Part shown: positions 8,085 through 56,149 of the stretch, piece by piece
Numbering within the stretch: position 1 is the first letter of the stretch
How the letters are laid out: each line of letters begins with the position of its first letter
Assembly: GCA_016931155.1 (NCBI GenBank)
Contig: JAFGFJ010000006.1
Coordinates: 314,896 to 378,895 of the forward strand
Reading direction: 5' to 3'
Origin: Candidatus Dojkabacteria bacterium
GTDB taxonomy: Bacteria; Patescibacteriota; Dojkabacteria; B142; JAFGFJ01
Length of the DNA stretch: 64,000 nucleotides
The notes under the pieces: generated by a model
What the model saw: the letters and a program-made list of their open reading frames with translations, nothing else
Told to the model about the DNA's origin: nothing
The model's database searches: none
Translations under genes and position numbers: made by a program

Positions 8085-8609
8085 ATGAAAGCTTTGAAAT
8101 TAGTGCCCTATTTGGTACTTGTTTCTCTCATATCAGTAGGAGTGTACTTACTGATAGGAATAACAAATCAGGAGAAATTGCAAAGTTATTCTGACTTTAT
8201 TGAAACAAGTAGTGGCAAAGTACTTGAAGGGATAAACAAACAGAGTGAACAGATAAACAGAATTGGAAATATTTCGGATATTGAAGAAGGAGTAATAACG
8301 GATAATGAGGATATTTCAAGTAAGTTTAAGACTTTACTTGAAGCAGAAAAAAAAGCCTGGCAGGAATTAAAAAAGCCTGAAGGGTCTAAGGAAACTCAGA
8401 AACAAATGGAAGAGTTTTTTAAGGGTGCAGAAGAAAGCAATAAGCAGTTTGATGAGGCAATGATGGAAATAAAAATACTGAAAAAAGAAGATGAGCTTCT
8501 AAGTACAATTAAGGGCTACAATGAGAAAGTAACAAAATTTGCAGAAACATACGAAGAGCTTATTGAAAACTTAAATAATTATATTGATGAAAGTAACTTT
8601 ATACGATAA
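8085..8609 (+). CDS. Hypothetical membrane-anchored coiled-coil protein inserted between rplC and rplD
   Basis: N-terminal hydrophobic helix (LVPYLVLVSLISVGVYLLIGI) followed by a K/E-rich predicted coiled coil; ATG 2 nt after the rplC stop and overlapping the rplD start by 26 nt. Confidence 0.55.
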   Translation: MKALKLVPYLVLVSLISVGVYLLIGITNQEKLQSYSDFIETSSGKVLEGINKQSEQINRIGNISDIEEGVITDNEDISSKFKTLLEAEKKAWQELKKPEGSKETQKQMEEFFKGAEESNKQFDEAMMEIKILKKEDELLSTIKGYNEKVTKFAETYEELIENLNNYIDESNFIR

Positions 8610-9402
8610 AACAGGAAAAAAGACTGAGAAAAAGATTGAGCTTGACTCTGCGATTTTTGGGGCAAAGGTTAATAAAAAACTATTAAGCCAGGCTGTCTAT
8701 ATATATCTTTCAAATCAAAGGACAGCCAATCCCCAGACTAAAGACAGGGGTGAAGTTAGTGGTGGAGGAAGAAAGCCATGGAAGCAGAAAGGGACGGGAA
8801 GAGCCAGACACGGTTCAACAAGAAGTCCGATCTGGAGAGGAGGAGGAGTTACTTTTGGTCCCACAAATCAAAAGAATTATAAAAAGACTATGCTTAAGAA
8901 AATGAAAAGAGCGGCAATTAGGTCAGCTTTTAGTTATCAGACTGAAGAGAAAAAAGTGTTGGTAATGGAAAAACCCGATTTCAAAGAAGGAGCACTTACA
9001 AAACAAGTCTTGAAAATTTTAAATAATTTGAGAATTGATAAGAAAGTGTTGTTTGTTCAGGGAGATATTGACCAAAACTTTGTTAAAGCAGTGAGTAATC
9101 TCAAAACTGTTTTGGTAAAACCGGTAAACGAACTTAACACTTATTCAGTATTAAATACACAATGGCTGATTTTTACAGATGAAAGTTTGGGAAAGGTTAG
9201 CGAGTTTTGGGGAGCAGAAAAAGGAAAAACTTTAAATACAGAGAAAGGGGAAGAGAAGAAGCTCAGCTCTGTTCAAAGAGATTTAGTAAAAAAGGAAACA
9301 AAAAGAGTCAAGGATGAGAGTGAGAAAAAGCCTTTGAAAAAGGTTGCAAAAAAATCGACTATAAAGAAAGTTAAAATAATAAAATCAAAAACAAAGAAAT
9401 AA
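8584..9402 (+). CDS. rplD: 50S ribosomal protein L4 with ~70-aa Lys-rich C-terminal extension
   Basis: GGGRKPWKQKGTGRARHGSTRSPIWRGGGVTFGP signature; 272 aa against ~200 typical. Confidence 0.93.
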   Translation: MMKVTLYDKTGKKTEKKIELDSAIFGAKVNKKLLSQAVYIYLSNQRTANPQTKDRGEVSGGGRKPWKQKGTGRARHGSTRSPIWRGGGVTFGPTNQKNYKKTMLKKMKRAAIRSAFSYQTEEKKVLVMEKPDFKEGALTKQVLKILNNLRIDKKVLFVQGDIDQNFVKAVSNLKTVLVKPVNELNTYSVLNTQWLIFTDESLGKVSEFWGAEKGKTLNTEKGEEKKLSSVQRDLVKKETKRVKDESEKKPLKKVAKKSTIKKVKIIKSKTKK

Positions 9403-9704
9403 TGAATAAGGTCGAGGCAAGCAAAATTATAATAAGACCAGTCGTTACGGAGAAGACGCTGGATCTTGTCGAAAAAGAAAATCAATATACTTTTGTTATT
9501 GGTAAAAGATTCAACAAGATTGAAGTTCAAAAAGCGGTTGCTCTCCTATTTAATGTGAAGGTATTAGGGGTAAGAATACTGAATGTTCTTGGAAAGAAAA
9601 CAAGATTTGGGAAAAGCAGGATTGAGGGAAAGAGACAGGGAATGAAGAAAGCTATAGTCACCTTGAAAGTAGGTGATAAGATCAGTGCATTTGAAATTAA
9701 ATAA
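9402..9704 (+). CDS. rplW: 50S ribosomal protein L23
   Basis: IIRPVVTEKT... order and size consistent with L23. Confidence 0.9.
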   Translation: MNKVEASKIIIRPVVTEKTLDLVEKENQYTFVIGKRFNKIEVQKAVALLFNVKVLGVRILNVLGKKTRFGKSRIEGKRQGMKKAIVTLKVGDKISAFEIK

Positions 9705-9731
9705 TATAATTAGACATTTGATGTTTTTATT

Positions 9732-10595
9732 ATGGCATTAAAGTTTAGAAAACCAGTGACACCAGGACAAAGGCATACAGCTCTTGTTGATACCAGCTGG
9801 TTGACAAAGAAAGAACCTGAAAAAAGCTTGACTGTTGCATTAAAATATAAAACCAGGAATTCGAGTGGGAGGCTTACGGTAAGACATAGGGGGGGGAGAG
9901 TAAAGAGGCTATACAGAATTATTGATTTCAAGAGGAGAAAAGAGGGTATGAAGGCTGAGGTCGTTGCTGTTGAATATGATCCAAACAGAAGTGCCAACAT
10001 CTTGCTTCTCAAGTATGAAGATGGAGCAAAAACCTATATACTTGCACCTGATGGTATTAAGACAGGTGATAAGTTGGAGTCGGGTGAAAATGCTCCAATC
10101 AAGGTTGGAAATGCATTGCCTTTAAAAAAGATTCCTTCGGGAAGTTATGTTCATAGTGTAGAGCTGAAAAGAGGAGAAGGTGCAGTTCTTGGAAGAGCAG
10201 CAGGAGCAGCCATTCAACTGCAAGGATTCAATAAAGGATATGCTCAACTCAAGATGCCAAGTGGAGAAATAAGGCTTGTAAGGGATGTAAATTTTGCGAC
10301 AATCGGAAATGTTGGGAATACAGAGCATAGTGGAGTGAGTTTGGGGAAGGCAGGAAGGAAAAGAAAAATGGGAATAAAGCCAACGGTCAGGGGAGTTGCA
10401 ATGAGCTGGAAGCACCCTCATGGAGGAGGGCAGGGTAAAAGTGGAAGGCACGGTCCAGGGGGACCTGCAAAAGACAGGTGGGGGAATAAAATAGGGAAAA
10501 AGACCAGGGTTAATAAGACTACGAATAAGTATATAGTGAAAAGAAAGACATCTAAAAGAGTAAAGAAAGTTAAAACATATAAAACAATAGTTTAA
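9732..10595 (+). CDS. rplB: 50S ribosomal protein L2
   Basis: MALKFRKPVTPGQRH, SWKHPHGGGQGK motifs. Confidence 0.95.
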   Translation: MALKFRKPVTPGQRHTALVDTSWLTKKEPEKSLTVALKYKTRNSSGRLTVRHRGGRVKRLYRIIDFKRRKEGMKAEVVAVEYDPNRSANILLLKYEDGAKTYILAPDGIKTGDKLESGENAPIKVGNALPLKKIPSGSYVHSVELKRGEGAVLGRAAGAAIQLQGFNKGYAQLKMPSGEIRLVRDVNFATIGNVGNTEHSGVSLGKAGRKRKMGIKPTVRGVAMSWKHPHGGGQGKSGRHGPGGPAKDRWGNKIGKKTRVNKTTNKYIVKRKTSKRVKKVKTYKTIV

Positions 10596-10606
10596 TAATA
10601 TAGATC

Positions 10607-10912
10607 ATGAGTAGATCATCGAAAAAGGGACCATATATTGACGAAAGGCTTTTAGAGAAAATTAAAAGAGCCAGAGATACTGGTGATAAGAAACCAATCA
10701 AGACATGGGCAAGATCTTCCAGTATTTCACCCGAGATGGTTGGAATTAATTTTGAGGTACACAATGGAAAAGAATTTGTTAAGGTGTTTGCAACTGAGTC
10801 AATGGTTGGGCATAAATTAGGAGAATTTTCACTAACCAGGAAGTTCACTGGTCATAGTAAGAAAGGTAAGATTGCTAAGGCAACAGGAACAGCTGGAAGA
10901 GTTGAGACATAA
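10607..10912 (+). CDS. rpsS: 30S ribosomal protein S19
   Basis: [35 protein letters not shown]. Confidence 0.95.
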
Positions 10913-10916
10913 AAAT

Positions 10917-11402
10917 ATGGAAAAAGAATTGGTGTGTGCAAAAAACAGATATGTTGGGAATGCCCCTAGAAAGGTGAGGCTGGTAGCGGGTTTGGTTCGT
11001 GGGAAAAATGCACTTGAGGCTATTGAAATGCTTAAATTTGTTAATAAAGCTGCTTCTCTCCCTGTTAAGAAGGTGTTGAATTCGGCGATTGCCAATGCAA
11101 CCTTCAATAAAGGATGGGACAAGAAACAGCTAAAGGTATCAAAAATTACTGTTGATGAAGCTCCTTCTTTCAAAAGAGGAAGAGCAGTTTCAAGAGGAAG
11201 ATATAGAAGAATCTTAAAAAGGAACAGTCACATAACTGTTGTTTTGGAGCAGATTTCTGAAGAGAAAAACACTGAAACAGAAAAAGGCGAAGTAAAGAGG
11301 TCTGAAGTAGGAAAAGTTGAGATGAACAATGATAAAGATAGAAAAATAGATAAGAGTAAAATTAAAACAACTAAATCTGTTAATAAAAAAAATGGGAAAT
11401 AA
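10917..11402 (+). CDS. rplV: 50S ribosomal protein L22 with Lys-rich C-terminal extension (start moved to ATG at 10917, immediately after the rpsS stop)
   Basis: APRKVRLVAGLVRGKNALEAIEMLKF L22 motif. Confidence 0.9.
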   Translation: MEKELVCAKNRYVGNAPRKVRLVAGLVRGKNALEAIEMLKFVNKAASLPVKKVLNSAIANATFNKGWDKKQLKVSKITVDEAPSFKRGRAVSRGRYRRILKRNSHITVVLEQISEEKNTETEKGEVKRSEVGKVEMNNDKDRKIDKSKIKTTKSVNKKNGK

Positions 11403-12042
11403 GACAAATCCGACAAGTATGAGAGTGGGAGTAAATCAAAACTGGAAGTCAGTTTGGTACTCCTCGAAGTCAGACTATGCAAAAATGATGCACGAGGACT
11501 TAATGATAAATGAGATTATTAGGAAAAAACTCAAACCGGCTGGAGTTGACGAAATAAGGATAAAAAGATCTATGAACAAGGTGTTGATTGAAATAACTGT
11601 GGCAAGGCCTGGAGTTGTTATCGGAAGAGGAGGAGCAGGTATTGAAGATCTTAAAAAGGAGTTAAAGAAGAAAATAAAGGGAGATGTCGAACCGAAAATA
11701 TTAGAAGTGAAAAAGAATGATGTTTCAGCGAACCTGATAGCAGAAAATATTGGCAATCAGCTCGAAAGAAGAATTGTTCCGAAATATGCTGCTGAAAGAG
11801 AAGTTGAAAATGCACGAAGCGCCAGTGGAGTAAAAGGCGTCAAAATTTGGATTTCGGGAAGGATTAAAGGAGCAGAGATAGCAAGAACAGAGAAGTTCCA
11901 GTGGGGGAGGATTCCTCTTCAAACACTTAGGGCAGATATTGATTACTCTTATAAATCTGTCCAGGTTCCAAATGCTGGTAAGCAGGGAATTAAAGTGTGG
12001 GTCTATAAAGGTGACAAAAACGAAATTGAATATGACGAATAA
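11392..12042 (+). CDS. rpsC: 30S ribosomal protein S3
   Basis: [25 protein letters not shown] domain [14 protein letters not shown]. Confidence 0.95.
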
Positions 12043-12464
12043 TGTTGCAGCCTAAAAAAACAAAATATAGAAAACAGTTCAGAGGAAAGAGAGGGGGTAC
12101 GGTAGTAAAAAAAGGTGCTTTTATTACTATGGGTGATTATGCACTTCAGGCTATTGAGAGATCCTGGATAACAGAAAGGCAGATTGAATCTGCTAGAAAG
12201 GCAATTGTTAGGGAAACGAAAAGAAAAGGTAAGTTGTGGCTAAAGATCTTCCCAGACAAACCTTACACAGGAAAACCGGCGGAAACCAGAATGGGAAAGG
12301 GTAAGGGGGACGTTGTTGGATATGTCTCAGTAGTTAAGCCAGGCAGGGTACTGTTTGAGCTGGGTGGGGTTACTGAAGAAACTGCAAGAGAAGCGTTTAG
12401 GGTAGCTGGTCATAAGTTACCTATTAAGACTCAGTTTGTAACCAGAATACAACAAACAAGATAA
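12042..12464 (+). CDS. rplP: 50S ribosomal protein L16
   Basis: [19 protein letters not shown] signature. Confidence 0.95.
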
Positions 12465-12465
12465 A

Positions 12466-12753
12466 ATGAAACCAAACGAACTTAGAAAATTTAGTAAAAA
12501 GGAGCTTGAGGAAAGGTTGGTTAAAAAAGCTGAAGAATTAGAGAGCAAGAAGTTTGAAGTCAGGATGAAAAAAGATAATGATTATGCAAGCTTGAAATTT
12601 TTGAAAAAAGAATTGGCAAGAATAAATACAATTATAAAGGCAGGTTCGTTTGCCATTGATGATATAAAGGATAAGGTGGAAAAGAAGACTGTGAAGAAAG
12701 AAACGAAGAAAAAAAACAGTATTGTGAGGAAGGATAAAGAACCTGATAAGTAA
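12466..12753 (+). CDS. rpmC: 50S ribosomal protein L29 with Lys-rich C-terminal extension
   Basis: MKPNELRKFSKKELEERLVKKAEEL L29 N-terminus; position between L16 and S17. Confidence 0.85.
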   Translation: MKPNELRKFSKKELEERLVKKAEELESKKFEVRMKKDNDYASLKFLKKELARINTIIKAGSFAIDDIKDKVEKKTVKKETKKKNSIVRKDKEPDK

Positions 12754-12782
12754 TCAGTAAATAAATATTTTTAATATAAGAA

Positions 12783-13094
12783 ATGGCAACAAAAGCAGAA
12801 AAAATAACAAAGAAGTTAAAAACAAAGAGAGTTGAGAAATCTCAGCAGAAGATAGCAAGAATAAAAACAGGAATAGTAGTAGGCAATAAGGCACAAAAGA
12901 CCTTGAGAGTGAGGGTTGAAAGGAAATTCTCTCACCCTTTGTATACGAAGATTGTAAAGAGGCACAAAAATTATCTTGTTCACAGTAATGAGCAGGTTGA
13001 GGTTGGTAAAATAATAAGATTCAAAGAGGTTAAGCCCATCTCAAAAGCAAAGAAATGGGTACTAATTGATGTATTAGAAAAGAAACAAATATGA
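12783..13094 (+). CDS. rpsQ: 30S ribosomal protein S17
   Basis: [32 protein letters not shown]. Confidence 0.93.
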
Positions 13095-13474
13095 TTCAAT
13101 CACTGACTAGACTAAAAGTTGCAGACAATAGTGGAGCCAAAGAAATAATGGTCATTCAAGTACAGGGCGGCAAAAAGGGTGGTGGCTATCAAAGGTTTGG
13201 TACAGTTGGAGAAATCGTGAGTGCTACTGTCAAAAAGGCACAGCCAAACAGTGGGGTGAGCAAAGGAGAGGTTGTACATGCGGTAATCATAAGGGTTGCA
13301 AAGGAAATAAAAAGAATAGATGGGTCTTATTTGAAGTTTGATGACAATGCAGCAGTTCTTATTGATAAAAAGAGTGGAGATCTTAAAGGTACAAGAATTT
13401 TTGGTCCAGTTGCAAGGGAGTTGAAAGAAAAAGGGTTTAATAAAATTGTTAGTTTAGCACCAGAAGTACTCTAA
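13091..13474 (+). CDS. rplN: 50S ribosomal protein L14
   Basis: [24 protein letters not shown]. Confidence 0.95.
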
Positions 13475-13785
13475 TGAAACTAAAAAAGGGAGATACAGTA
13501 AAGGTATTATCAGGTAAGTATCGAGGGAAAACGGGAGACATCCTGAAGATTTTTCTCGCAAAGAATACTGCGATTGTTGAGAAAGTGAATATAGTAAAAA
13601 AACATAAAAAGAAATCAGCTAATGAAAAAGAACCTGGCGGAATAATTGAAGTTGAGGCTCCGGTTCATATTTCGAACCTTATGCTTCAATGTAAAAATTG
13701 TTTGAAATTTACCAGGGTAGGATTTAGAAACGATGAAAAAGGAAAAAAAGTGAGATATTGCAAAAAATGCGATAAGACAATATAA
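13474..13785 (+). CDS. rplX: 50S ribosomal protein L24 carrying a C-terminal CxxC-x17-CxxC putative zinc ribbon
   Basis: KOW N-terminus [26 protein letters not shown]; C-terminus QCKNCLKFTRVGFRNDEKGKKVRYCKKCDKTI has four Cys where E. coli L24 has none. Confidence 0.9.
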   Translation: MKLKKGDTVKVLSGKYRGKTGDILKIFLAKNTAIVEKVNIVKKHKKKSANEKEPGGIIEVEAPVHISNLMLQCKNCLKFTRVGFRNDEKGKKVRYCKKCDKTI

Positions 13786-13791
13786 AAAATC

Positions 13792-14460
13792 ATGATAGAA
13801 CCAAGAAAGAAAAAAGAATTTAATGAAAAAATAAAAAAGGAACTAATGTCAATTCTTGGGATTGATAATGTGATGGCTGTTCCGATGCTAACAAAAATAG
13901 TGATAAATACCGGAATGGGAGAGGCAAAAGAAGATACGAAGCAGTATGAAGAGATGGCAAATGAATTGGCTGCGATTTCGGGGCAGAAACCGGTTATTAG
14001 TAAAGCAAAGAAGGCAATTTCAAATTTCAAGATTCGTGCTGGTAGTATTGTTGGATTGAGTGTTACCTTGAGAGGGAGGAGAATGTGGGAGTTTTTTGAT
14101 AAACTTGTCAGCATCACTCTTCCAAGAGTAAAGGACTTTCGGGGTCTTTCTCCGAAGTCTTTTGATGGTAGAGGGAACTATTCTCTTGGACTTAAAGAGC
14201 ATACGGTATTTATTGAAGTAGATACTAATAAAGTGACAAAACTTAGAGGTGTCCAGATAACACTTTGTACCAGTTCTGGTGATGATAAAAGAGCCTATGT
14301 CCTGCTTGAGAAACTCGGTATGCCTTTTATGAAAAATACGAAAAAACAGGAAGAGATGAAACAGGCAATAGATGCGGTTGAAGCGGGTCCTACTGTTGAC
14401 AAAGAGATCAGGGAAAGCAAGGAGGTTGAAGGTGTACAAGGAAATAATGATAATTTATAA
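13792..14460 (+). CDS. rplE: 50S ribosomal protein L5 with acidic/Lys-rich C-terminal extension
   Basis: [34 protein letters not shown] motifs. Confidence 0.93.
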
Positions 14461-14468
14461 AATTTATA

Positions 14469-14663
14469 ATGAGTACAGAAGCACAAGAAGCAAAATCAAG
14501 AAAATACAAAAGAAAAGCAAATAAGTCGGTAAAAGCATTCAATAGATGCAGGATTTGCGGGAGGAGAAGAGGATATATGAGGATGTTTGATCTTTGCAGG
14601 ATACATTTCAGGGAACTGGCTCAAAAAGGGCAATTGCCCGGAGTAACTAAAAGTACGTGGTAA
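14469..14663 (+). CDS. rpsZ: 30S ribosomal protein S14, zinc-binding type Z (CxxC...CxxH variant)
   Basis: [38 protein letters not shown]; 63 aa. Confidence 0.92.
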
Positions 14664-14687
14664 TTATTTATTATTAGCTGAGTTTAG

Positions 14688-15083
14688 ATGAACGACCCAA
14701 TAGCAGATTTACTAACAAGAATAAGGAATGCACAAATGAGGAAGTCAAAGGTGTTTGTAATGCCTTCTTCCAAGATGGTCGTTTCTATTGTCGATATTCT
14801 GAAGAAGGAGGGTTTTATTGAAGATTATAAAAATAATGAGAGTGGCGTGATTGCAGGAAAAGAGATAATAATAAATCTGAAATATAATGATGGTAAACCC
14901 TCAATTACAGGGCTTAAAAGAATATCAAAACCTGGGGTCAGAAGATATGTTGGATACAGAGATATTAGGAAAGTACTTGGTGGACTTGGTGTGTCTATTG
15001 TTTCTACTCCCAGGGGAGTAATGACAGGTGATTCTGCAAGGAAGGAAAGAGTTGGAGGAGAGATACTTTGTGAAATCTGGTAA
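14688..15083 (+). CDS. rpsH: 30S ribosomal protein S8
   Basis: DPIADLLTRIRNAQMRK, GGEILCEIW C-terminus. Confidence 0.95.
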   Translation: MNDPIADLLTRIRNAQMRKSKVFVMPSSKMVVSIVDILKKEGFIEDYKNNESGVIAGKEIIINLKYNDGKPSITGLKRISKPGVRRYVGYRDIRKVLGGLGVSIVSTPRGVMTGDSARKERVGGEILCEIW

Positions 15084-15094
15084 TCATTCAAATT

Positions 15095-15667
15095 ATGTCA
15101 AGAATAGGAAAAAACCCAATAACAATTACAGAAGGAGTGATTATTACTGTTGAGGACGGAGGAAAATTTGGTCATAAGGTTGTGAAAGTAAAAGGACCGA
15201 AAGGAGAGCTCAGTGAGGATATTAGAAAAGGGATAGATATTGAGTTGAGTGAAAGTGAGCTAAAGGTTATAAATAAAAAAGATGAGGATAAGTATAACAG
15301 GTCTTTGCATGGATTATACAGAACATTGATAAACAATATGGTAGAGGGAGTAACAGAGGGCTTCCAGAAAAAACTGGAGATTGTTGGTATTGGATATAAA
15401 GCTATACCAAAAGGTGAAGATCTCGAATTATACGTAGGTTTTAGTCATCCTATTTTGGTAAAAGCTCCAGAAGGGATTGCTCTTTCAGTTGAAGAAAATG
15501 TTAAAATCACTGTTTCAGGAATCAATAAAAGACTGGTAGGGGAAATTGCTGCAAGAATAAGAAAAGTGAAAAAACCTGAGCCATATAAAGGTAAAGGAAT
15601 TAGATATGAAGGGGAAGTGGTGAAAAGAAAGGTCGGAAAAGCAGCAGCTACAACAGAAGCAACATAA
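15095..15667 (+). CDS. rplF: 50S ribosomal protein L6
   Basis: MSRIGKNPITI..., two-domain L6 length. Confidence 0.93.
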   Translation: MSRIGKNPITITEGVIITVEDGGKFGHKVVKVKGPKGELSEDIRKGIDIELSESELKVINKKDEDKYNRSLHGLYRTLINNMVEGVTEGFQKKLEIVGIGYKAIPKGEDLELYVGFSHPILVKAPEGIALSVEENVKITVSGINKRLVGEIAARIRKVKKPEPYKGKGIRYEGEVVKRKVGKAAATTEAT

Positions 15668-15671
15668 TATT

Positions 15672-16013
15672 ATGAGCAGACAAAATTTAAGACTAAAAAG
15701 AAAAACAAGATCGAAGTATAAAATCAGAGGAACTGATTCCAGGCCAAGGCTTAGTGTCTTTAGATCAAATAAACATATTTGTGGTCAGTTAATTGATGAC
15801 GAAAATTCGAAAACCTTGGTTCAAGTTTCTGACATGAAGTTCAAAAATAAAGGTACGAAGACTGATCTTGCCTTTATCGTCGGAGAAAATATTGCGTCTG
15901 AAGCAAAGACAAAAAAGATTACAAAGATTGTTTTTGACAGGAGTGGGTATAAGTATCATGGAAGAGTTAGGGCTCTTGCTGAGGGAGCAAGAAAAGGTGG
16001 TCTTTTATTCTAA
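15672..16013 (+). CDS. rplR: 50S ribosomal protein L18
   Basis: RPRLSVFRSNKHICGQLIDD..., KIVFDRSGYKYHGRVRALAEGARKGGL. Confidence 0.93.
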   Translation: MSRQNLRLKRKTRSKYKIRGTDSRPRLSVFRSNKHICGQLIDDENSKTLVQVSDMKFKNKGTKTDLAFIVGENIASEAKTKKITKIVFDRSGYKYHGRVRALAEGARKGGLLF

Positions 16014-16028
16014 TTTATATATTTATAA

Positions 16029-16616
16029 ATGGCAGAGGAACAAAAACAAAAAGCGAAAGTAGGTACAGTAGAACAGACTTCTCCCGGAGAAGTTAAGGAA
16101 AGGCTTGAACGTATAAAGGTGAGAAGAGTTCAGAGGAAATCTGATGCAAGAGGTAACAAGAGGGGAAGAGATAAAGACAGAGATGAGCTTGATACAAGAA
16201 TCATTAATATAAGGAGGGTAACAAGAGTATATAAAGGTGGGAAAAGGATGAGGCTGAGTGCCTTTGTTGTGGTTGGAGACAGAAAAGGTAGTATTGGACT
16301 GGGTGTGGGAAAAGGTTCTGATGTTAGATCCGCTGAGGCTAAGGCGATAAACTATGCAAGAAAACACATGGTAAAAATCAGTCTTAAAGGAAATACACTA
16401 CCTCATCAGATCATTGGGAAAAGCGGAGCGGCAGAAGTTTTTATGAAGCCTGCTGCCCCTGGAACTGGAGTTATTGCAGGCAGTGCTGCCAGGGCTGTTG
16501 TGGAAGTTGCAGGTGTTAAAGATATTCTTACTAAAGTGCTTGGATCTGATAACAGTATAAATAATGCATATGCGACACTTGATGGACTTACTAAACTTAG
16601 ACTCACTCGAAGCTAA
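16029..16616 (+). CDS. rpsE: 30S ribosomal protein S5
   Basis: INIRRVTRVYKGGKRMRLSAFVVVGDRKGSIGLGVGKG signature. Confidence 0.95.
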   Translation: MAEEQKQKAKVGTVEQTSPGEVKERLERIKVRRVQRKSDARGNKRGRDKDRDELDTRIINIRRVTRVYKGGKRMRLSAFVVVGDRKGSIGLGVGKGSDVRSAEAKAINYARKHMVKISLKGNTLPHQIIGKSGAAEVFMKPAAPGTGVIAGSAARAVVEVAGVKDILTKVLGSDNSINNAYATLDGLTKLRLTRS

Positions 16617-17068
16617 TGCTTAACAATTTGATCTCGCCAAAAACAAAAAAGAAAAGCAAAATAATCGGAAGAGGTTACGGTTCCGGGGTTGGTGGTCATA
16701 CTGTTGGTAAAGGTCAGAAAGGTCAGAAGTCGAGGTCTGGGTATTCAAAACCTAGACCGGGTTTCGAGGGGGGGCAGATGCCTCTTTCAAGAAGACTTCC
16801 AAAACTTAGAGGTTTCAAGCGGGGGTATTTTAAGTCAAAGTCACACAATACTGTTCTCAATCTTTCTGATCTAGAAGGGCTTGGACTTACAAGGGTTTCT
16901 TTTGAATCCTTGAAAGAAAAGGGATTATTAGGTGGATTTTCAAAAAAACAGGAAGTAAAAATATTATCTGGGGGAAAAATAAGTAGAAAAGTGGAAATCG
17001 TTGGAATTAAAATTTCAAAAAAAGCCCAGGAAAAGGTAGAAAAGGCTGGGGGAAAAGTTACTGCTTAA
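16616..17068 (+). CDS. rplO: 50S ribosomal protein L15 (directly follows S5; no L30 gene)
   Basis: GRGYGSGVGGHTVGKGQKGQKSRSG signature. Confidence 0.93.
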   Translation: MLNNLISPKTKKKSKIIGRGYGSGVGGHTVGKGQKGQKSRSGYSKPRPGFEGGQMPLSRRLPKLRGFKRGYFKSKSHNTVLNLSDLEGLGLTRVSFESLKEKGLLGGFSKKQEVKILSGGKISRKVEIVGIKISKKAQEKVEKAGGKVTA

Positions 17069-17078
17069 TTTTTTAATA

Positions 17079-18551
17079 ATGCTGGAAACACAAAAAAAAA
17101 GCTCAGGAATGCCTGCAAGTATTTTTAGTCGCACAGTAAGAAAAGTCTCAGGAGAGACTAAGAAGAGTGGCATTTTTACTAAATTCCAAAGGACGTTTGC
17201 AAATAAAGATATAAGGAATCGTTTCCTTTTCACTATGTTGATGGTTTTGGTATTCAGATTATTGTCTGCTGTTCCACTTCCAGGAATTGACCCTGCAGTT
17301 TTTAAAGAATTTTTTCAAGGTACTCCTTTCAGTAATATCTTTACCATAGTTACTGGAGGAAGGCTTGATAATCCGTCTATTGTAGCAATTGGGCTGGCTT
17401 CTTATATTAATGCCTCAATTATGATTCAACTGTTTACAACTGTTATTCCCTCTCTTGAGGAAATGTCAAAAGAAGGGGAAAGAGGAAAGCAAAAATTGAA
17501 TCAGATAACCAGAGTATTGACTGTTCCACTGACAGTGCTGCAGTCCGTAGTGATTTATACTATTTTGAAAAACAGTGCTGGTATTTCAAATCTCGTCGCG
17601 GAGTCATCGGTTTTGGATGTAGTTACTATGATTACGACACTGACTGCCGGGACGATGCTCCTGATGTGGATATCTGAGATTATTTCAGAAAGTGGGATCG
17701 GAAATGGCTCGTCAATAATAATTTCCGCTGGTGTTCTTGCAGTTATCCCGAGTTTTATTTCACAGGATTTCCAAAGTGTTGAACTCAATTTTAAATTTCT
17801 TTTAGAAGGAAAACTTGAAGTTCTATGGAGCTCAAATATGCTTTTGATCTATGCGATAATTGTGGGGCTTGTTGTTTTACTATTAGGTATAGTTTTTATG
17901 TCGGAGGCAACAAGAAAACTATCTATCCAGTATGCAAGAAGAGTAAGGGGTGGTGTGGCGGGATTTCAAAATACTTTTCTTCCGATTAAGCTTAACCAGG
18001 CAGGGGTGATGCCTGTAATATTTGCATCATCAATACTCATTCTGCCGCAGATACTTTCTCAGTTTGTGGTCAGTTCCTTTGAATCGGGTAAGTTTTATGA
18101 TATTGCCAATGCAATAGGAAATTCCTTTCTTTCAGACTATGGATCATTTGGATACAATTTAACCTACTTCTTTGCAATTATTGGGTTTACTTTCTTTTAT
18201 ACTTTTGTTGTTCTAAACCCGAATGATACAGCGGACAACCTGAAGAAAAGTGGAGGCTTCATACCTGGGATTAGACCTGGGACTTCAACTGCCAGTTATA
18301 TTACGAAAGTTATGATCAGATTGACTATTGTCGGGGGTATTTTCCTCGGGGCAATAGCTCTTGCTCCTTCTCTTATTAATCAATTTGCGACTAATCAGTT
18401 CCTTGGAGAAGCTGCAAATTATGGGAGATCGACTCTTTTTTCCGGAATTGGGGGTACCAGTCTTTTGATTTTGGTAGGAGTAATACTTGATACAAAACGA
18501 AAGATTGAATCTATGGCAGTTACACGTAGCTACGAGCATTACAAAGACTAA
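17079..18551 (+). CDS. secY: Preprotein translocase subunit SecY
   Basis: 10-TM profile; RLLSAVPLPGID, GTMLLMWISEIISESGIGNGSSIII motifs. Confidence 0.95.
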   Translation: MLETQKKSSGMPASIFSRTVRKVSGETKKSGIFTKFQRTFANKDIRNRFLFTMLMVLVFRLLSAVPLPGIDPAVFKEFFQGTPFSNIFTIVTGGRLDNPSIVAIGLASYINASIMIQLFTTVIPSLEEMSKEGERGKQKLNQITRVLTVPLTVLQSVVIYTILKNSAGISNLVAESSVLDVVTMITTLTAGTMLLMWISEIISESGIGNGSSIIISAGVLAVIPSFISQDFQSVELNFKFLLEGKLEVLWSSNMLLIYAIIVGLVVLLLGIVFMSEATRKLSIQYARRVRGGVAGFQNTFLPIKLNQAGVMPVIFASSILILPQILSQFVVSSFESGKFYDIANAIGNSFLSDYGSFGYNLTYFFAIIGFTFFYTFVVLNPNDTADNLKKSGGFIPGIRPGTSTASYITKVMIRLTIVGGIFLGAIALAPSLINQFATNQFLGEAANYGRSTLFSGIGGTSLLILVGVILDTKRKIESMAVTRSYEHYKD

Positions 18552-18554
18552 ATA

Positions 18555-19304
18555 TTGGGAATTACTATTAAAAACAAAAAAGAGATAGATTTAATGCGGG
18601 TAGGTGGGAAAATGCTTGGGGATATTGTTGAAGAACTTGGGAGGATGGTAAAGGCGGGAATTTCATCATGGGATATTGAAAAAAAATCCCAGGCTCTTTT
18701 ACAGCATTATAAGGTTAAGCCGGCGTTTCTGAATTATCTTGGCTATCCCTGTGTCTCATGTGTTGGATTAAATGACACAGCTGTACATGGGATTCCAAGT
18801 AAAGATGAAATTTTGAATGAGGGAGATATTGTTAGTATTGATATGGGACTGATTTATCAGGGGATGTATTTGGATCATGCTGTTACTGTCCCTGTCGGAA
18901 AAATCTCCAGTGAGAGTGCGAAGCTCATTAATGTGACTAGAGATGCGATGAAAGCTGGAATAAATCAGGCAAAAGAGGGAAATACGGTTGGAGATATAAG
19001 TCATGCTATTCAGACTACTGCGGAGCTTGCAGGGTTTTCTGTAATAAGGCAAATGGTAGGACATGGAGTAGGTTACCAGGTGCACGAACCTCCTCAAATT
19101 CCCTGCTTTGGAGAAAAAGGGACTGGAGAAATGCTTGAAGAAGGTATGACTCTTGCAATTGAGGCAATGGTAAATGCAGGTGGTGCAGAAATATTGATAT
19201 TGGAGGATGGTTGGACGACAAAAACGCAGGACGGAAAGAATTCTGCAATTTTTGAACATACTATAGTAGTTGGGGAGAAAAAGTCGGAGATTTTGACCGA
19301 GTAG
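18555..19304 (+). CDS. map: Methionine aminopeptidase type I
   Basis: Pita-bread fold motifs VHGIP, VSIDMG, HGVGYQVHEPPQI, EHTIVV. Confidence 0.93.
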   Translation: MGITIKNKKEIDLMRVGGKMLGDIVEELGRMVKAGISSWDIEKKSQALLQHYKVKPAFLNYLGYPCVSCVGLNDTAVHGIPSKDEILNEGDIVSIDMGLIYQGMYLDHAVTVPVGKISSESAKLINVTRDAMKAGINQAKEGNTVGDISHAIQTTAELAGFSVIRQMVGHGVGYQVHEPPQIPCFGEKGTGEMLEEGMTLAIEAMVNAGGAEILILEDGWTTKTQDGKNSAIFEHTIVVGEKKSEILTE

Positions 19305-19443: not shown

Positions 19444-19701
19444 GTGTTTTCAAATATGACTGGAAGTGAGACCAAGCCAGGAGAGAAATTTAAGGTAACA
19501 GGTACTGTTACAGAGACTCTTCCAGGCGCAAAATTTAGAGTAAATATTAAAATGGGTGAACTCGACCATGAGATAATCGCCTATATTTCGGGCAAGATGA
19601 GAATGCACTATATTAAACTTCAGCCAGGGGATCAGGTGGAGGTTGAAATGACACCATATGATTTACAAAAAGGAAGAATCACTTATAGAGGACAAAAATG
19701 A
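19444..19701 (+). CDS. infA: Translation initiation factor IF-1
   Basis: [67 protein letters not shown]. Confidence 0.93.
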
Positions 19702-19829
19702 AAGTAAAGGCTTCAATTAAAAAAAGATGTGAGCATTGCTATATTGTGAGAAGACGCAAGAAAAACGGTAAGCATGTTATATATATTTACTGTAAAAGGG
19801 ATGCGACCCACAAGCAGAGGCAAGGTTAA
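19698..19829 (+). CDS. rpmJ: 50S ribosomal protein L36 (43 aa, zinc ribbon CxxC...CxxxxH); not in the ORF track because it is under 60 aa; ATG overlaps the infA stop (ATGA)
   Basis: Own translation: [43 protein letters not shown]. Confidence 0.9.
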
Positions 19830-20725: not shown

Positions 20726-21322
20726 ATGGCAAGATATACAGGACCAAAATGGAAAATAAGCAGGCGAGAAGGGGCTAGTGTTTATGGAGATGAAAAATGG
20801 AAAAAAAGACCTACTCTTCCGGGGCAACACCCGACGAGTATGAAAAGACCGAGTAACTACGCTATTCAGCTTAGAGAAAAGCAGAAAGTTAAAAGGATGT
20901 ATGGGCTATTGGAAAAGCAGTTTAGAGGAGTATACCAGAAGGCAACTGCTGCAACTGGAAATACAGGAACCAGGCTACTGCAACTTCTTGAGATGAGGCT
21001 TGATAATGTAGTTTACAGACTTGGTTTTGCGAAAACAAGAAATCAGGCAAGGCAGATGGTAACCCATGCTCATGTAAAAGTGAATGATAAAAAAGTTAAT
21101 ATACCTTCTTATATAGTAAAAGTTGGTGATCAAATTATGATAAAAGGGGCAGAAAAGAAGGATAATTGTGTAGCACTGATAAAGTTAGAAACAAAAAATG
21201 CTAAGGTTCCTTTGTGGTTGAGCAGAGTTAGTGAAGGAGGAGAGATAAAGAGTGTTCCTACAAGAGAGATGATGGATCCAACAATCAAAGAACAGCTTAT
21301 TGTTGAGTTCTATTCGAGATAA
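20726..21322 (+). CDS. rpsD: 30S ribosomal protein S4
   Basis: MARYTGPKWKISRREG, S4 domain RLDNVVYRLGFAKTRNQARQMVTHAHVKVN. Confidence 0.95.
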   Translation: MARYTGPKWKISRREGASVYGDEKWKKRPTLPGQHPTSMKRPSNYAIQLREKQKVKRMYGLLEKQFRGVYQKATAATGNTGTRLLQLLEMRLDNVVYRLGFAKTRNQARQMVTHAHVKVNDKKVNIPSYIVKVGDQIMIKGAEKKDNCVALIKLETKNAKVPLWLSRVSEGGEIKSVPTREMMDPTIKEQLIVEFYSR

Positions 21323-34229: not shown

Positions 34230-34234
34230 TTTCG

Positions 34235-34627
34235 GTCTAGTCAGAACGGTCGCTAAGCGTGAGCTTAGAGGAAAGTCCGAACTCCTCTTGGCACAATAGT
34301 CAGGACAAGGTACCTTGGAGACAAGGCAGGGAGTGATCTCTGGGATTAGAGCAACAGAAAGTAAGGAGCCTGCGAATTGCAGGCGATCTTGAAAGGGTGC
34401 CTCCGGGTTTTTCTGGGGGGCGTACATGAAATTTCATGTATGACGTGTAAGAGACCACCGGTCACGATAGTAATATCGAGATGCTGGTAATCCCTATCGG
34501 GAGCAAGATCAAAGTGTAGATCGCAAAGTGTTTGTTCTTTTGATTAATCAGAACAAATACTGCTAGAGAAATGACCGTCATTCTGGTGTTGCCAGAAAGA
34601 ACAGAATTCGGCTTATTGACTAGACCA
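34235..34627 (+). ncRNA. rnpB: RNase P RNA, bacterial type A-like
   Basis: Universal motifs read in sequence: AGAGGAAAGUCCGAACUCC (P4 5' strand), GUAAGAGACCACC, ACAGAAUUCGGCUUAUUGACUAGACC (P4 3' strand plus P1); the 5' GGUCUAGUCAG pairs with the 3' UUGACUAGACC to form P1; no ORF of significance. Confidence 0.88.
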
Positions 34628-34734
34628 TTTTTTCAACCACTTCAGGAGTATTTCCATTTGGGTGCATAATACTTCCTGTATAGAAACCATTATTTCTTGA
34701 AAATTTCAATTTACAGTGGGAACACATAGATACA

Positions 34735-54019: not shown

Positions 54020-54094
54020 TTGGAGCGGGCAACGGGAATCGAACCCGTATCATCAGTTTGGAAAACTGACATAATAACCTTTATACGATGCCCG
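54020..54094 (-). tRNA. tRNA-Gly (anticodon UCC) with encoded CCA
   Basis: Reverse complement folds as a cloverleaf: acceptor GCGGGCA/UGCCCGC, T-arm ACGGG-UUCGAUU-CCCGU, anticodon stem UCAGU/ACUGA with loop UUUCCAA, discriminator U then CCA. Confidence 0.75.
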
Positions 54095-54240
54095 CACAAA
54101 ACACGCAATTGTAGCAGATCAGTCTCCTTTTTGTGAAGCAATGGACCAGGAATTGTGTTAATGGTCGGGTACGGCTGAAACTTTATCGTGTCCTGTTTTC
54201 TGCTAGTTTTCATCTATTGCAATATTGGGATTACTTAGTA

Positions 54241-54320
54241 TGAGTAGCTATCTCCGAAGCACTTCAAGTCTCTGTGCATGAGTAGCTCTTCCCGCAGCAC
54301 TTCAAATTCCTGTCGTAAGT
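54241..54320. repeat. Imperfect tandem duplication (~38 nt x2, ~80% identity) spanning the stop codon and 3' end of the 424-aa ORF
   Basis: tgagtagctatctccgaagcacttcaagtctctgtgca followed by tgagtagctcttcccgcagcacttcaaattcctgtcgt. Confidence 0.7.
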
Positions 54321-55538
54321 AGACGGGTCACCGTTCTTTACGTATTTTAAGACCTTTCCGCAGATGTCACATCTCACCGGGTCGGGTCTGTCAGGGGTTG
54401 GTTGAGGTTCAAACCCCGGATTCAATATCGAGTTTACTCTTCCGAATGTGCTGAACTTTTCCGATATACCGCAGGCGCTCATCACATAACCTTCTTGTCT
54501 CATAAGTCTGGCTTGAGCATATCTATCCATTTTTTGAAAATCTGAGAAACCTCCATCTTGATCGTAATTAATCCCTGTTTCTAGCTTCATTACATCATGT
54601 ATATATTTTCTAAATCCGAACTGCAGGACTGCCATTGTTTCATTGATGAAGGAAAGTTCTTTAGAAATATTTTCCCCTTTATTCAATTTTGCGGCCGTCG
54701 CCGTAATCAATGTTCTAAATTCCTCCCTGACTCTTTCCCAAACAAACGTCTTTGCATAAGCCTCAATTAATCTAATTTTCATTTCTTCGAGACCTTTTGT
54801 TCTTTGTTCTATAAAATCGGTTATGATTCTGAGTTTGTTGTCATCAAAGAAGCCTGATGATGCCATTATGCTTAAATCTGAAAGATTATTGCTGTCTGTA
54901 TTAATTGCCAATTCATTCAGTAGTTCCTCATAATCAAGAGTCGAAGTTGCGGGTAGCCATTTTTGTATAACTTTCTCGGTACCATTTTCATTTATAAATA
55001 AAAAGATGGTGTCGTTCCCCAGATAACCTCTTTTTTTTGCTTCTTCGGTAAGTGGCGGGCTTGGGCTGAATTCTACAAAATTTCTTTTATCTCCCATCTG
55101 TCTTGCTCTTCTGAGTTTTTCATAATTGCTCAGATTTATTGTGTTTCTTAAGATTTCAAATTCAGGAATTTGCCCGCTCGCATTATTTATTGCTTCTCTA
55201 TAGATTTCGTCAAGTGTTCTGTTTCCTGTTGCGAGCTTCCACGGTAAATTGCTCTTATCCCAAGGGAGGCTGTATTCATATATTGCAGTAGTTTCTGCGA
55301 TGGGATGCTCAACGATCTGGGTGTATATGTCGGTAAGGCTTTCTGTCAATGCAATGTTCAACAATGCCTCCCTTTCCTCTCCTCCAGCAGATTGGATAGC
55401 TTTTAGAGCCTGAAGTACATAGTTTATTGAGTTTGAGTATCTGTTTGAATACTGCGCCCTGATAGAATCCATACTTAAATCTGCTTTATTGATCGCAAAT
55501 CTCGACGGTTGTATTTCCTGTATGGCTGTTTCGCTCAT
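54264..55538 (-). CDS. Hypothetical protein with C-terminal Cys cluster (CDICGK...CCGKSYSC)
   Basis: Long ORF with coding-like composition; no recognisable family. Confidence 0.4.
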   Translation of the reverse strand: MSETAIQEIQPSRFAINKADLSMDSIRAQYSNRYSNSINYVLQALKAIQSAGGEEREALLNIALTESLTDIYTQIVEHPIAETTAIYEYSLPWDKSNLPWKLATGNRTLDEIYREAINNASGQIPEFEILRNTINLSNYEKLRRARQMGDKRNFVEFSPSPPLTEEAKKRGYLGNDTIFLFINENGTEKVIQKWLPATSTLDYEELLNELAINTDSNNLSDLSIMASSGFFDDNKLRIITDFIEQRTKGLEEMKIRLIEAYAKTFVWERVREEFRTLITATAAKLNKGENISKELSFINETMAVLQFGFRKYIHDVMKLETGINYDQDGGFSDFQKMDRYAQARLMRQEGYVMSACGISEKFSTFGRVNSILNPGFEPQPTPDRPDPVRCDICGKVLKYVKNGDPSTYDRNLKCCGKSYSCTET

Positions 55539-56149
55539 TTCATTTCAGAAACGAGCAGTGTTGAAGAATTAATTTTCATGGCTTTCTGCTCGGAAAGATA
55601 AAATAATCTTGGCTGGTTTTCTGGCTTTTCCAGTGATGGAATTACAGTTGCGGCACAGCAGCGGTATTTCACCGCTTTTCCCATTTAATCCCGAAAAGAG
55701 AACCTGAAATATACTAGAGTAAAAATTATAATTTTGCAAGAAGTGTAGGTCTGATGTATTTGATGTACAACTTCAAGACCTATGTAGCAACTGAGACTCT
55801 ACGGGCTGTACAGGTTCATGAACATATGCAACAGCCATAGTAGAATACGTTGATGTTTCAAATTATTAATGATTCAAACAAAACGGTTGTTGTATAACGA
55901 GTTTAATCTTTAATATGTTTCATCACACGATAGAGAAGGCGAGTAAAATCAGCTTATTTTTTTCATTAACTGTAGAGACTCTTACAGAGAGCCAAGGATA
56001 AACTAGATGCTTGTTATGTATTATATGTAAGACAAGCAAACTCTCAATGAAGGAAGTAGTAGAGACCACGGCTAAGTTTTGCTCATCATTATTGTTGATC
56101 TTTTGCCAAATGAATTGTACTCTGTATTAGTCAGATTCCTGCCCTAATT

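Follow-up and report, generated by a model that had tools for sequence, protein, structure and literature searches.

In bacterial ribosomal proteins, metal-binding isoforms with cysteines (C+) have been distinguished from cysteine-free isoforms (C-), a concept that reportedly goes back to Makarova et al. in 2001. One of the proteins in which both forms occur is uL24, which binds domain I of the 23S rRNA near the peptide tunnel exit and plays an early role in assembly of the 50S subunit. In Thermus, zinc has been described as coordinated by uL24 as well as by uS14, bS18, bL28, bL31, bL32, bL33 and bL36 (Nucleic Acids Res. 2023; PMC10450194). In this work, the C+ form of uL24 is defined by the pattern (CXXC)-(CXXC), with the site displayed on PDB entry 4Y4Y, and the frequencies of C+ and C- isoforms of nine proteins are given for 2021 bacteria, a sample of cultured bacteria of known growth temperature in which the CPR (Patescibacteria) are unmentioned (PMC10450194). 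The frequency of C+ forms climbs with optimal growth temperature, uL24 being invariantly C+ at 80 °C and above, and non-thermophilic outliers are documented (PMC10450194). The uL24 of T. thermophilus (PDB 4Y4Y, 1VY4 and 4V8A), whose sequence is identical to that of PDB chain 10px_1Y and is found in 267 entries, carries the motif CPAC-x19-CAKC.

A uL24 of the same type is encoded in a 64-kb stretch of DNA of Candidatus Dojkabacteria (CPR), referred to below as the window. Going by its sequence, the gene is the standard rplX of this organism, encoding the housekeeping uL24 in its metal-binding (C+) isoform, with an ORF of 103 codons plus stop at 13474-13785 (+). The product matches the NCBIfam model TIGR01079 (rplX_bact) at 121.7 bits against a cut-off of 53.7, with residues 1-103 placed on profile positions 2-104, as well as the Pfam model ribosomal_L24 (PF17136; 94.1 bits, 6e-27), and it is identical to an NCBI entry, from a contig of 559,650 bp, named 50S ribosomal protein L24 [Candidatus Dojkabacteria bacterium]. 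The ATG start codon shares one base with the TAA stop codon of uL14, the next gene upstream (TAATG), and rplX lies between rplN (uL14, 13091-13474, +; TIGR01067, 151.7 bits) and rplE (uL5, 13792-14460, +; NF000585, 249 bits), which is the canonical spc-operon order uL14-uL24-uL5 with all three genes on the + strand. Both profiles and the operon slot thus bear out the preliminary description of this ORF as an L24 homologue of 103 aa. The N-terminal beta-barrel domain contains a KOW motif at residues 5-36 (13486-13581, +; Pfam KOW PF00467, E 2.6e-9, 36.9 bits), in which the predicted model has strands at residues 8-11, 20-27 and 32-35.

The protein contains exactly four cysteines, C73, C76, C96 and C99 (codons 13690-13692, 13699-13701, 13759-13761 and 13768-13770), arranged as CKNC-x19-CKKC. 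The first pair, C73-K-N-C76 (13690-13701, +), lies in the turn between the strand at residues 69-72 and a strand ending at residue 86, and the second pair, C96-K-K-C99 (13759-13770, +), occupies the end of the strand at residues 92-96 and the next turn, as read from the sequence and from DSSP of the model. These positions would be compatible with a zinc-ribbon fold, in which two CxxC turns sit on the tips of beta-hairpins. The preliminary description had reported this C-terminal quartet and quoted its peptide, QCKNCLKFTRVGFRNDEKGKKVRYCKKCDKTI, correctly, with the spacer miscounted as 17 residues instead of 19. The arrangement C73xxC76-x19-C96xxC99 conforms to the published C+ pattern (CXXC)-(CXXC), and in a multiple alignment the four cysteine columns of the window uL24 are those of the T. 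thermophilus zinc ligands.

The two proteins share their family, a two-domain fold and the cysteine columns at 47% identity. They differ in the first pair, which is CPAC-G in T. thermophilus and CKNC-L in the window uL24; in their ends, since the window uL24 has neither the N-terminal extension of four residues nor the short acidic C-terminal one found in the Thermus protein; and in their sources, a low-G+C CPR genome as opposed to a thermophile of the Deinococcus-Thermus group. The combination of CKNC with a following Leu departs from the commoner form CPxCG, CKNC being found in 4 of 59 C+ homologues, while the second pair, CKKC, is the most frequent form (44 of 59). The C- proteins of E. coli and B. 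subtilis have the same length, fold (TM 0.88-0.90) and operon position as the window uL24, and in E. coli the four ligand columns hold N, T, F and N. The E. coli protein has no cysteines, and the cysteine-free C-terminal segment earlier cited from it for comparison agrees with the E. coli uL24 chains of the PDB. The eukaryotic and archaeal treble-clef zinc finger eL24 (L24e) resembles the window uL24 only in being called 'L24' and, for some members, in binding zinc; literature on this 'L24' zinc finger was therefore set aside as a precedent, since eL24 is an unrelated family. A candidate treble-clef domain, zf_Tbcl_2, was rejected in the window uL24 because its Pfam match is insignificant (E 0.067, 13.3 bits versus a 27-bit cut-off), and the zinc-ribbon models of Pfam gave no match to this protein in the Pfam scan.

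The AlphaFold2 model of the window uL24, built on a 65-sequence alignment, has a mean pLDDT of 91, rising to 94-95 over residues 71-100. In a Foldseek search against the PDB, the top TM-score (query) belongs to T. thermophilus uL24 (4v8a_AY; 0.92, rmsd 1.4 Å, 103 columns), and the best 50 matches are all ribosome or ribosomal-subunit entries, uL24 chains by label, with query TM-scores of 0.73-0.92, or 0.79-0.92 when a T. gondii mitoribosomal entry is set aside. Cysteine-free uL24 chains match the model almost as well (TM 0.85-0.91), and the metal is therefore not needed to specify the fold; such a near-equal fold match is usual for pairs of C+ and C- forms. The four sulfurs of the window uL24 would be expected to cluster in space by comparison with the Thermus homologue.

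Taken together with the distribution described below, the cysteine quartet almost certainly forms a zinc site, and we consider it very probable that an otherwise ordinary uL24 here carries a structural Zn(Cys)4 site of the Thermus type, which would stabilise its C-terminal beta subdomain. The choice of zinc as the metal would follow by homology, from the Thermus protein and the published survey. As in T. thermophilus, the thiolates of C73, C76, C96 and C99, situated on two turns, would coordinate one structural Zn2+, which would cross-brace a small C-terminal beta subdomain with little hydrophobic core and presumably stabilise it; the metal would have no catalytic role, and uL24 would otherwise work as usual. 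A protein of this kind represents an already known class, that of Thermus, with a solved structural example, and the impact on annotation is small, as the gene is already annotated as L24 and the isoform class has been described.

Among the best 120 database homologues of the window uL24, 59 are C+ with four cysteines, and the cysteines are distributed in an all-or-none fashion, with exactly four in 57 of the 59 C+ homologues and none in 60 of the 61 others. Such a distribution would be predicted for a metal site with four ligands, and the same all-or-none pattern is seen in other ribosomal protein families with C+ and C- forms. In 58 of the 59, the two pairs are separated by 18 or 19 residues. 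In a sample of GTDB species loci, which was limited by its search pattern and includes few CPR genomes, 27 of 80 loci are C+, and these include Paceibacteria, Saccharibacteria, Sungbacteria, Zixibacteria, Acidimicrobiia, Syntrophaceae and Clostridia. A query with residues 1-70 only, which is unbiased for the cysteine region, was used to collect the 150 best matches from 1.84 billion cluster representatives; only intact uL24 sequences were kept, since truncations and frameshifts affect many of the representatives, and 21 of these 72 (29%) are C+. The opinion put forward earlier, that zinc-binding variants of L24 are not common knowledge, is thus contradicted by the Thermus protein, by the published survey (PMC10450194), and by the C+ state of about half of the nearest homologues and about 29% of the sample unbiased for the cysteine region. 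The common impression that zinc forms are limited to L31, L32, L33, L36, S14 and S18 is corrected accordingly.

Conservation of the cysteines in relatives, which the preliminary description had proposed as a check, holds for the closest of them and breaks down within the class. All of the closest relatives in the database (P0002-P0008), at 54-93% identity, are C+, while the uL24 of another Dojkabacteria genome (locus L026) is cysteine-free (C-), although it is the highest-identity match among the 80 GTDB loci, with 58% identity over the best tblastn segment and 53% over the whole protein; the uL14 of that locus is 70% identical to the window uL14. The C+ state is therefore not fixed and still switches within the Dojkabacteria class. 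In one database protein of 176 aa (P0121), uL24 seems to have been duplicated in tandem or fused, giving two units that each comprise a KOW and a C-terminal part. The cysteine quartet is complete in the second unit, and the first unit has just the initial CxxC pair. As this protein is encoded on an 897-bp contig, it may be an assembly artefact.

The only mildly new point in these data is that C+ uL24 appears to be very common in CPR bacteria. All 118 best matches to a CPR uL24 profile are C+, with Sungbacteria, Moranbacteria and Nealsonbacteria among the named ones, although this profile of eight sequences is biased toward C+ because seven of its eight query rows are C+. On zinc or cysteine in the ribosomal proteins of the CPR, a literature search yielded nothing specific. 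C+ uL24 might even be near-universal across the CPR (Patescibacteria), with sporadic losses such as that of L026, a tentative proposition to which we give slightly less than an even chance. CPR bacteria are uncultured, have small genomes and commonly come from non-thermal habitats. If C+ uL24 were near-universal in them, the published practice of taking metal-binding ribosomal proteins as a proxy for growth temperature would meet a systematic and very large exception in the CPR, and the retention of an ancestral zinc site would be supported. In any case, the CPR join the lineages with C+ uL24, which is relevant where growth temperature is to be inferred from C+ counts in uncultured organisms, as the CPR signal may reflect ancestry instead of heat.

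The C+ state of the window uL24 is most likely an inherited ancestral one that would have been lost repeatedly elsewhere, including in at least one Dojkabacteria genome. The least improbable of the alternatives is that C+ uL24 marks thermophily, as an adaptation to high growth temperature and not a retained ancestral feature. The rise of C+ frequency with growth temperature and the invariance of C+ uL24 at 80 °C and above agree with this idea, whereas the same survey has non-thermophilic outliers (PMC10450194). Within the window, uS4 is C- and the G+C content is 36.7%, both of which speak against heat, and C+ uL24 is also common in lineages not known to be thermophilic, being found in metagenome-assembled genomes of Acidimicrobiia and Clostridiales and in many CPR bacteria; as far as titles can be judged, these records, whose isolate names refer to fen, soil or gut, offer no hint of hot sources. 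Thermophily is therefore an unlikely explanation, and the ancestral reading is retained here.

The identity of the metal has also been considered, as four cysteines could bind iron, either in a rubredoxin-like Fe(Cys)4 site or in an Fe-S cluster, instead of zinc. Rubredoxin too has its ligands on paired CxxC turns. Ribosomal proteins can contain iron-sulfur sites, the uS4 of Thermus holding an Fe4S4 cluster by means of a cysteine motif, but that motif, CXXC-CXXXXC, differs from the one in uL24, to which zinc and not iron has been assigned (PMC10450194). Nothing within the window points to iron, and an iron site is considered very improbable next to the proposed zinc site. Slightly less probable still is that the window uL24 forms the zinc-replete half of a pair of C+ and C- paralogues under Zur control, with a cysteine-free uL24 encoded elsewhere in the genome. 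Such pairs are the classic biology of C+ and C- forms, as known for bL31, bL33, bL36, uS14 and bS18 (cited in PMC10450194), but in contrast to families that have a paralogue pair or a zinc-starvation switch, neither is evident for uL24 within the 64-kb window. The single uL24 locus of the window sits in the canonical operon slot, and tblastn searches with the window, E. coli and C- Dojkabacteria (L026) uL24 sequences found no second copy there. Lastly, the notion that the cysteines are fortuitous and non-functional, or form disulfides instead of binding metal, is scarcely credible, as the strict co-occurrence of all four or none effectively refutes both, the reducing cytoplasm of bacteria makes stable disulfides unlikely, and, at the 0.84% cysteine frequency of the long ORFs of the window, about 4e-6 matches to CxxC-x15-25-CxxC are expected per 103-aa protein, so that the motif is not due to chance.

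Several other ribosomal proteins of the window belong to families with metal-binding forms. The uS14 (14469-14663, +) is of the short, type-Z (zinc) form (NF005974, 78.4 bits), in which the fourth ligand is a histidine (CRIC...CRIH), as opposed to CxxC...CxxC in L026 and Thermus; it would be scored as C- if the (CXXC)-(CXXC) rule of the survey were applied strictly, yet it probably binds zinc. The bL36 (19698-19829, +) has 43 aa versus 37, with an insertion of about six residues between ligands 2 and 3, and keeps the ligands C, C, C and H. The uS4 (20726-21322, +), when aligned to Thermus uS4, is without the N-terminal cysteine cluster and is cysteine-free (C-), so that C+ uL24 and bL36 occur alongside a C- uS4 in one genome.

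Several ribosomal proteins encoded at 8584-16616 (+) seem unusually long, with tails rich in Lys and Glu. The long ones include uL4 (272 aa), uL22 (176 aa, start uncertain), uL29 (95 aa), uS17 (103 aa) and uL5 (222 aa), and uS5, at 195 aa, is extended by about 50 residues at its N-terminus. In addition, uL30 is absent between uS5 (16029-16616, +) and uL15 (16616-17068, +), which directly adjoin, and adk is absent between secY (17079-18551, +) and map (18555-19304, +). CPR genomes that lack uL30 have been described.

Further along the window, a cobalamin riboswitch (55594-55722, -; Rfam RF00174, 60 bits) is located upstream of a same-strand ORF of 424 aa (54264-55538, -). No Pfam model matches this ORF at 1e-5, and by eye it shows no obvious long hydrophobic stretches, while its end is cysteine-rich (RCDICGK...KCCGKSYSC); with the riboswitch upstream, it is a putative B12-regulated gene of this CPR genome, so far uncharacterised. 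A tRNA-Gly with anticodon TCC (54021-54095, -) is the sole tRNA gene found in the 64-kb window, and the RNA of bacterial class A RNase P is encoded at 34233-34631 (+), with a full-length match of 134 bits (E 6e-41).
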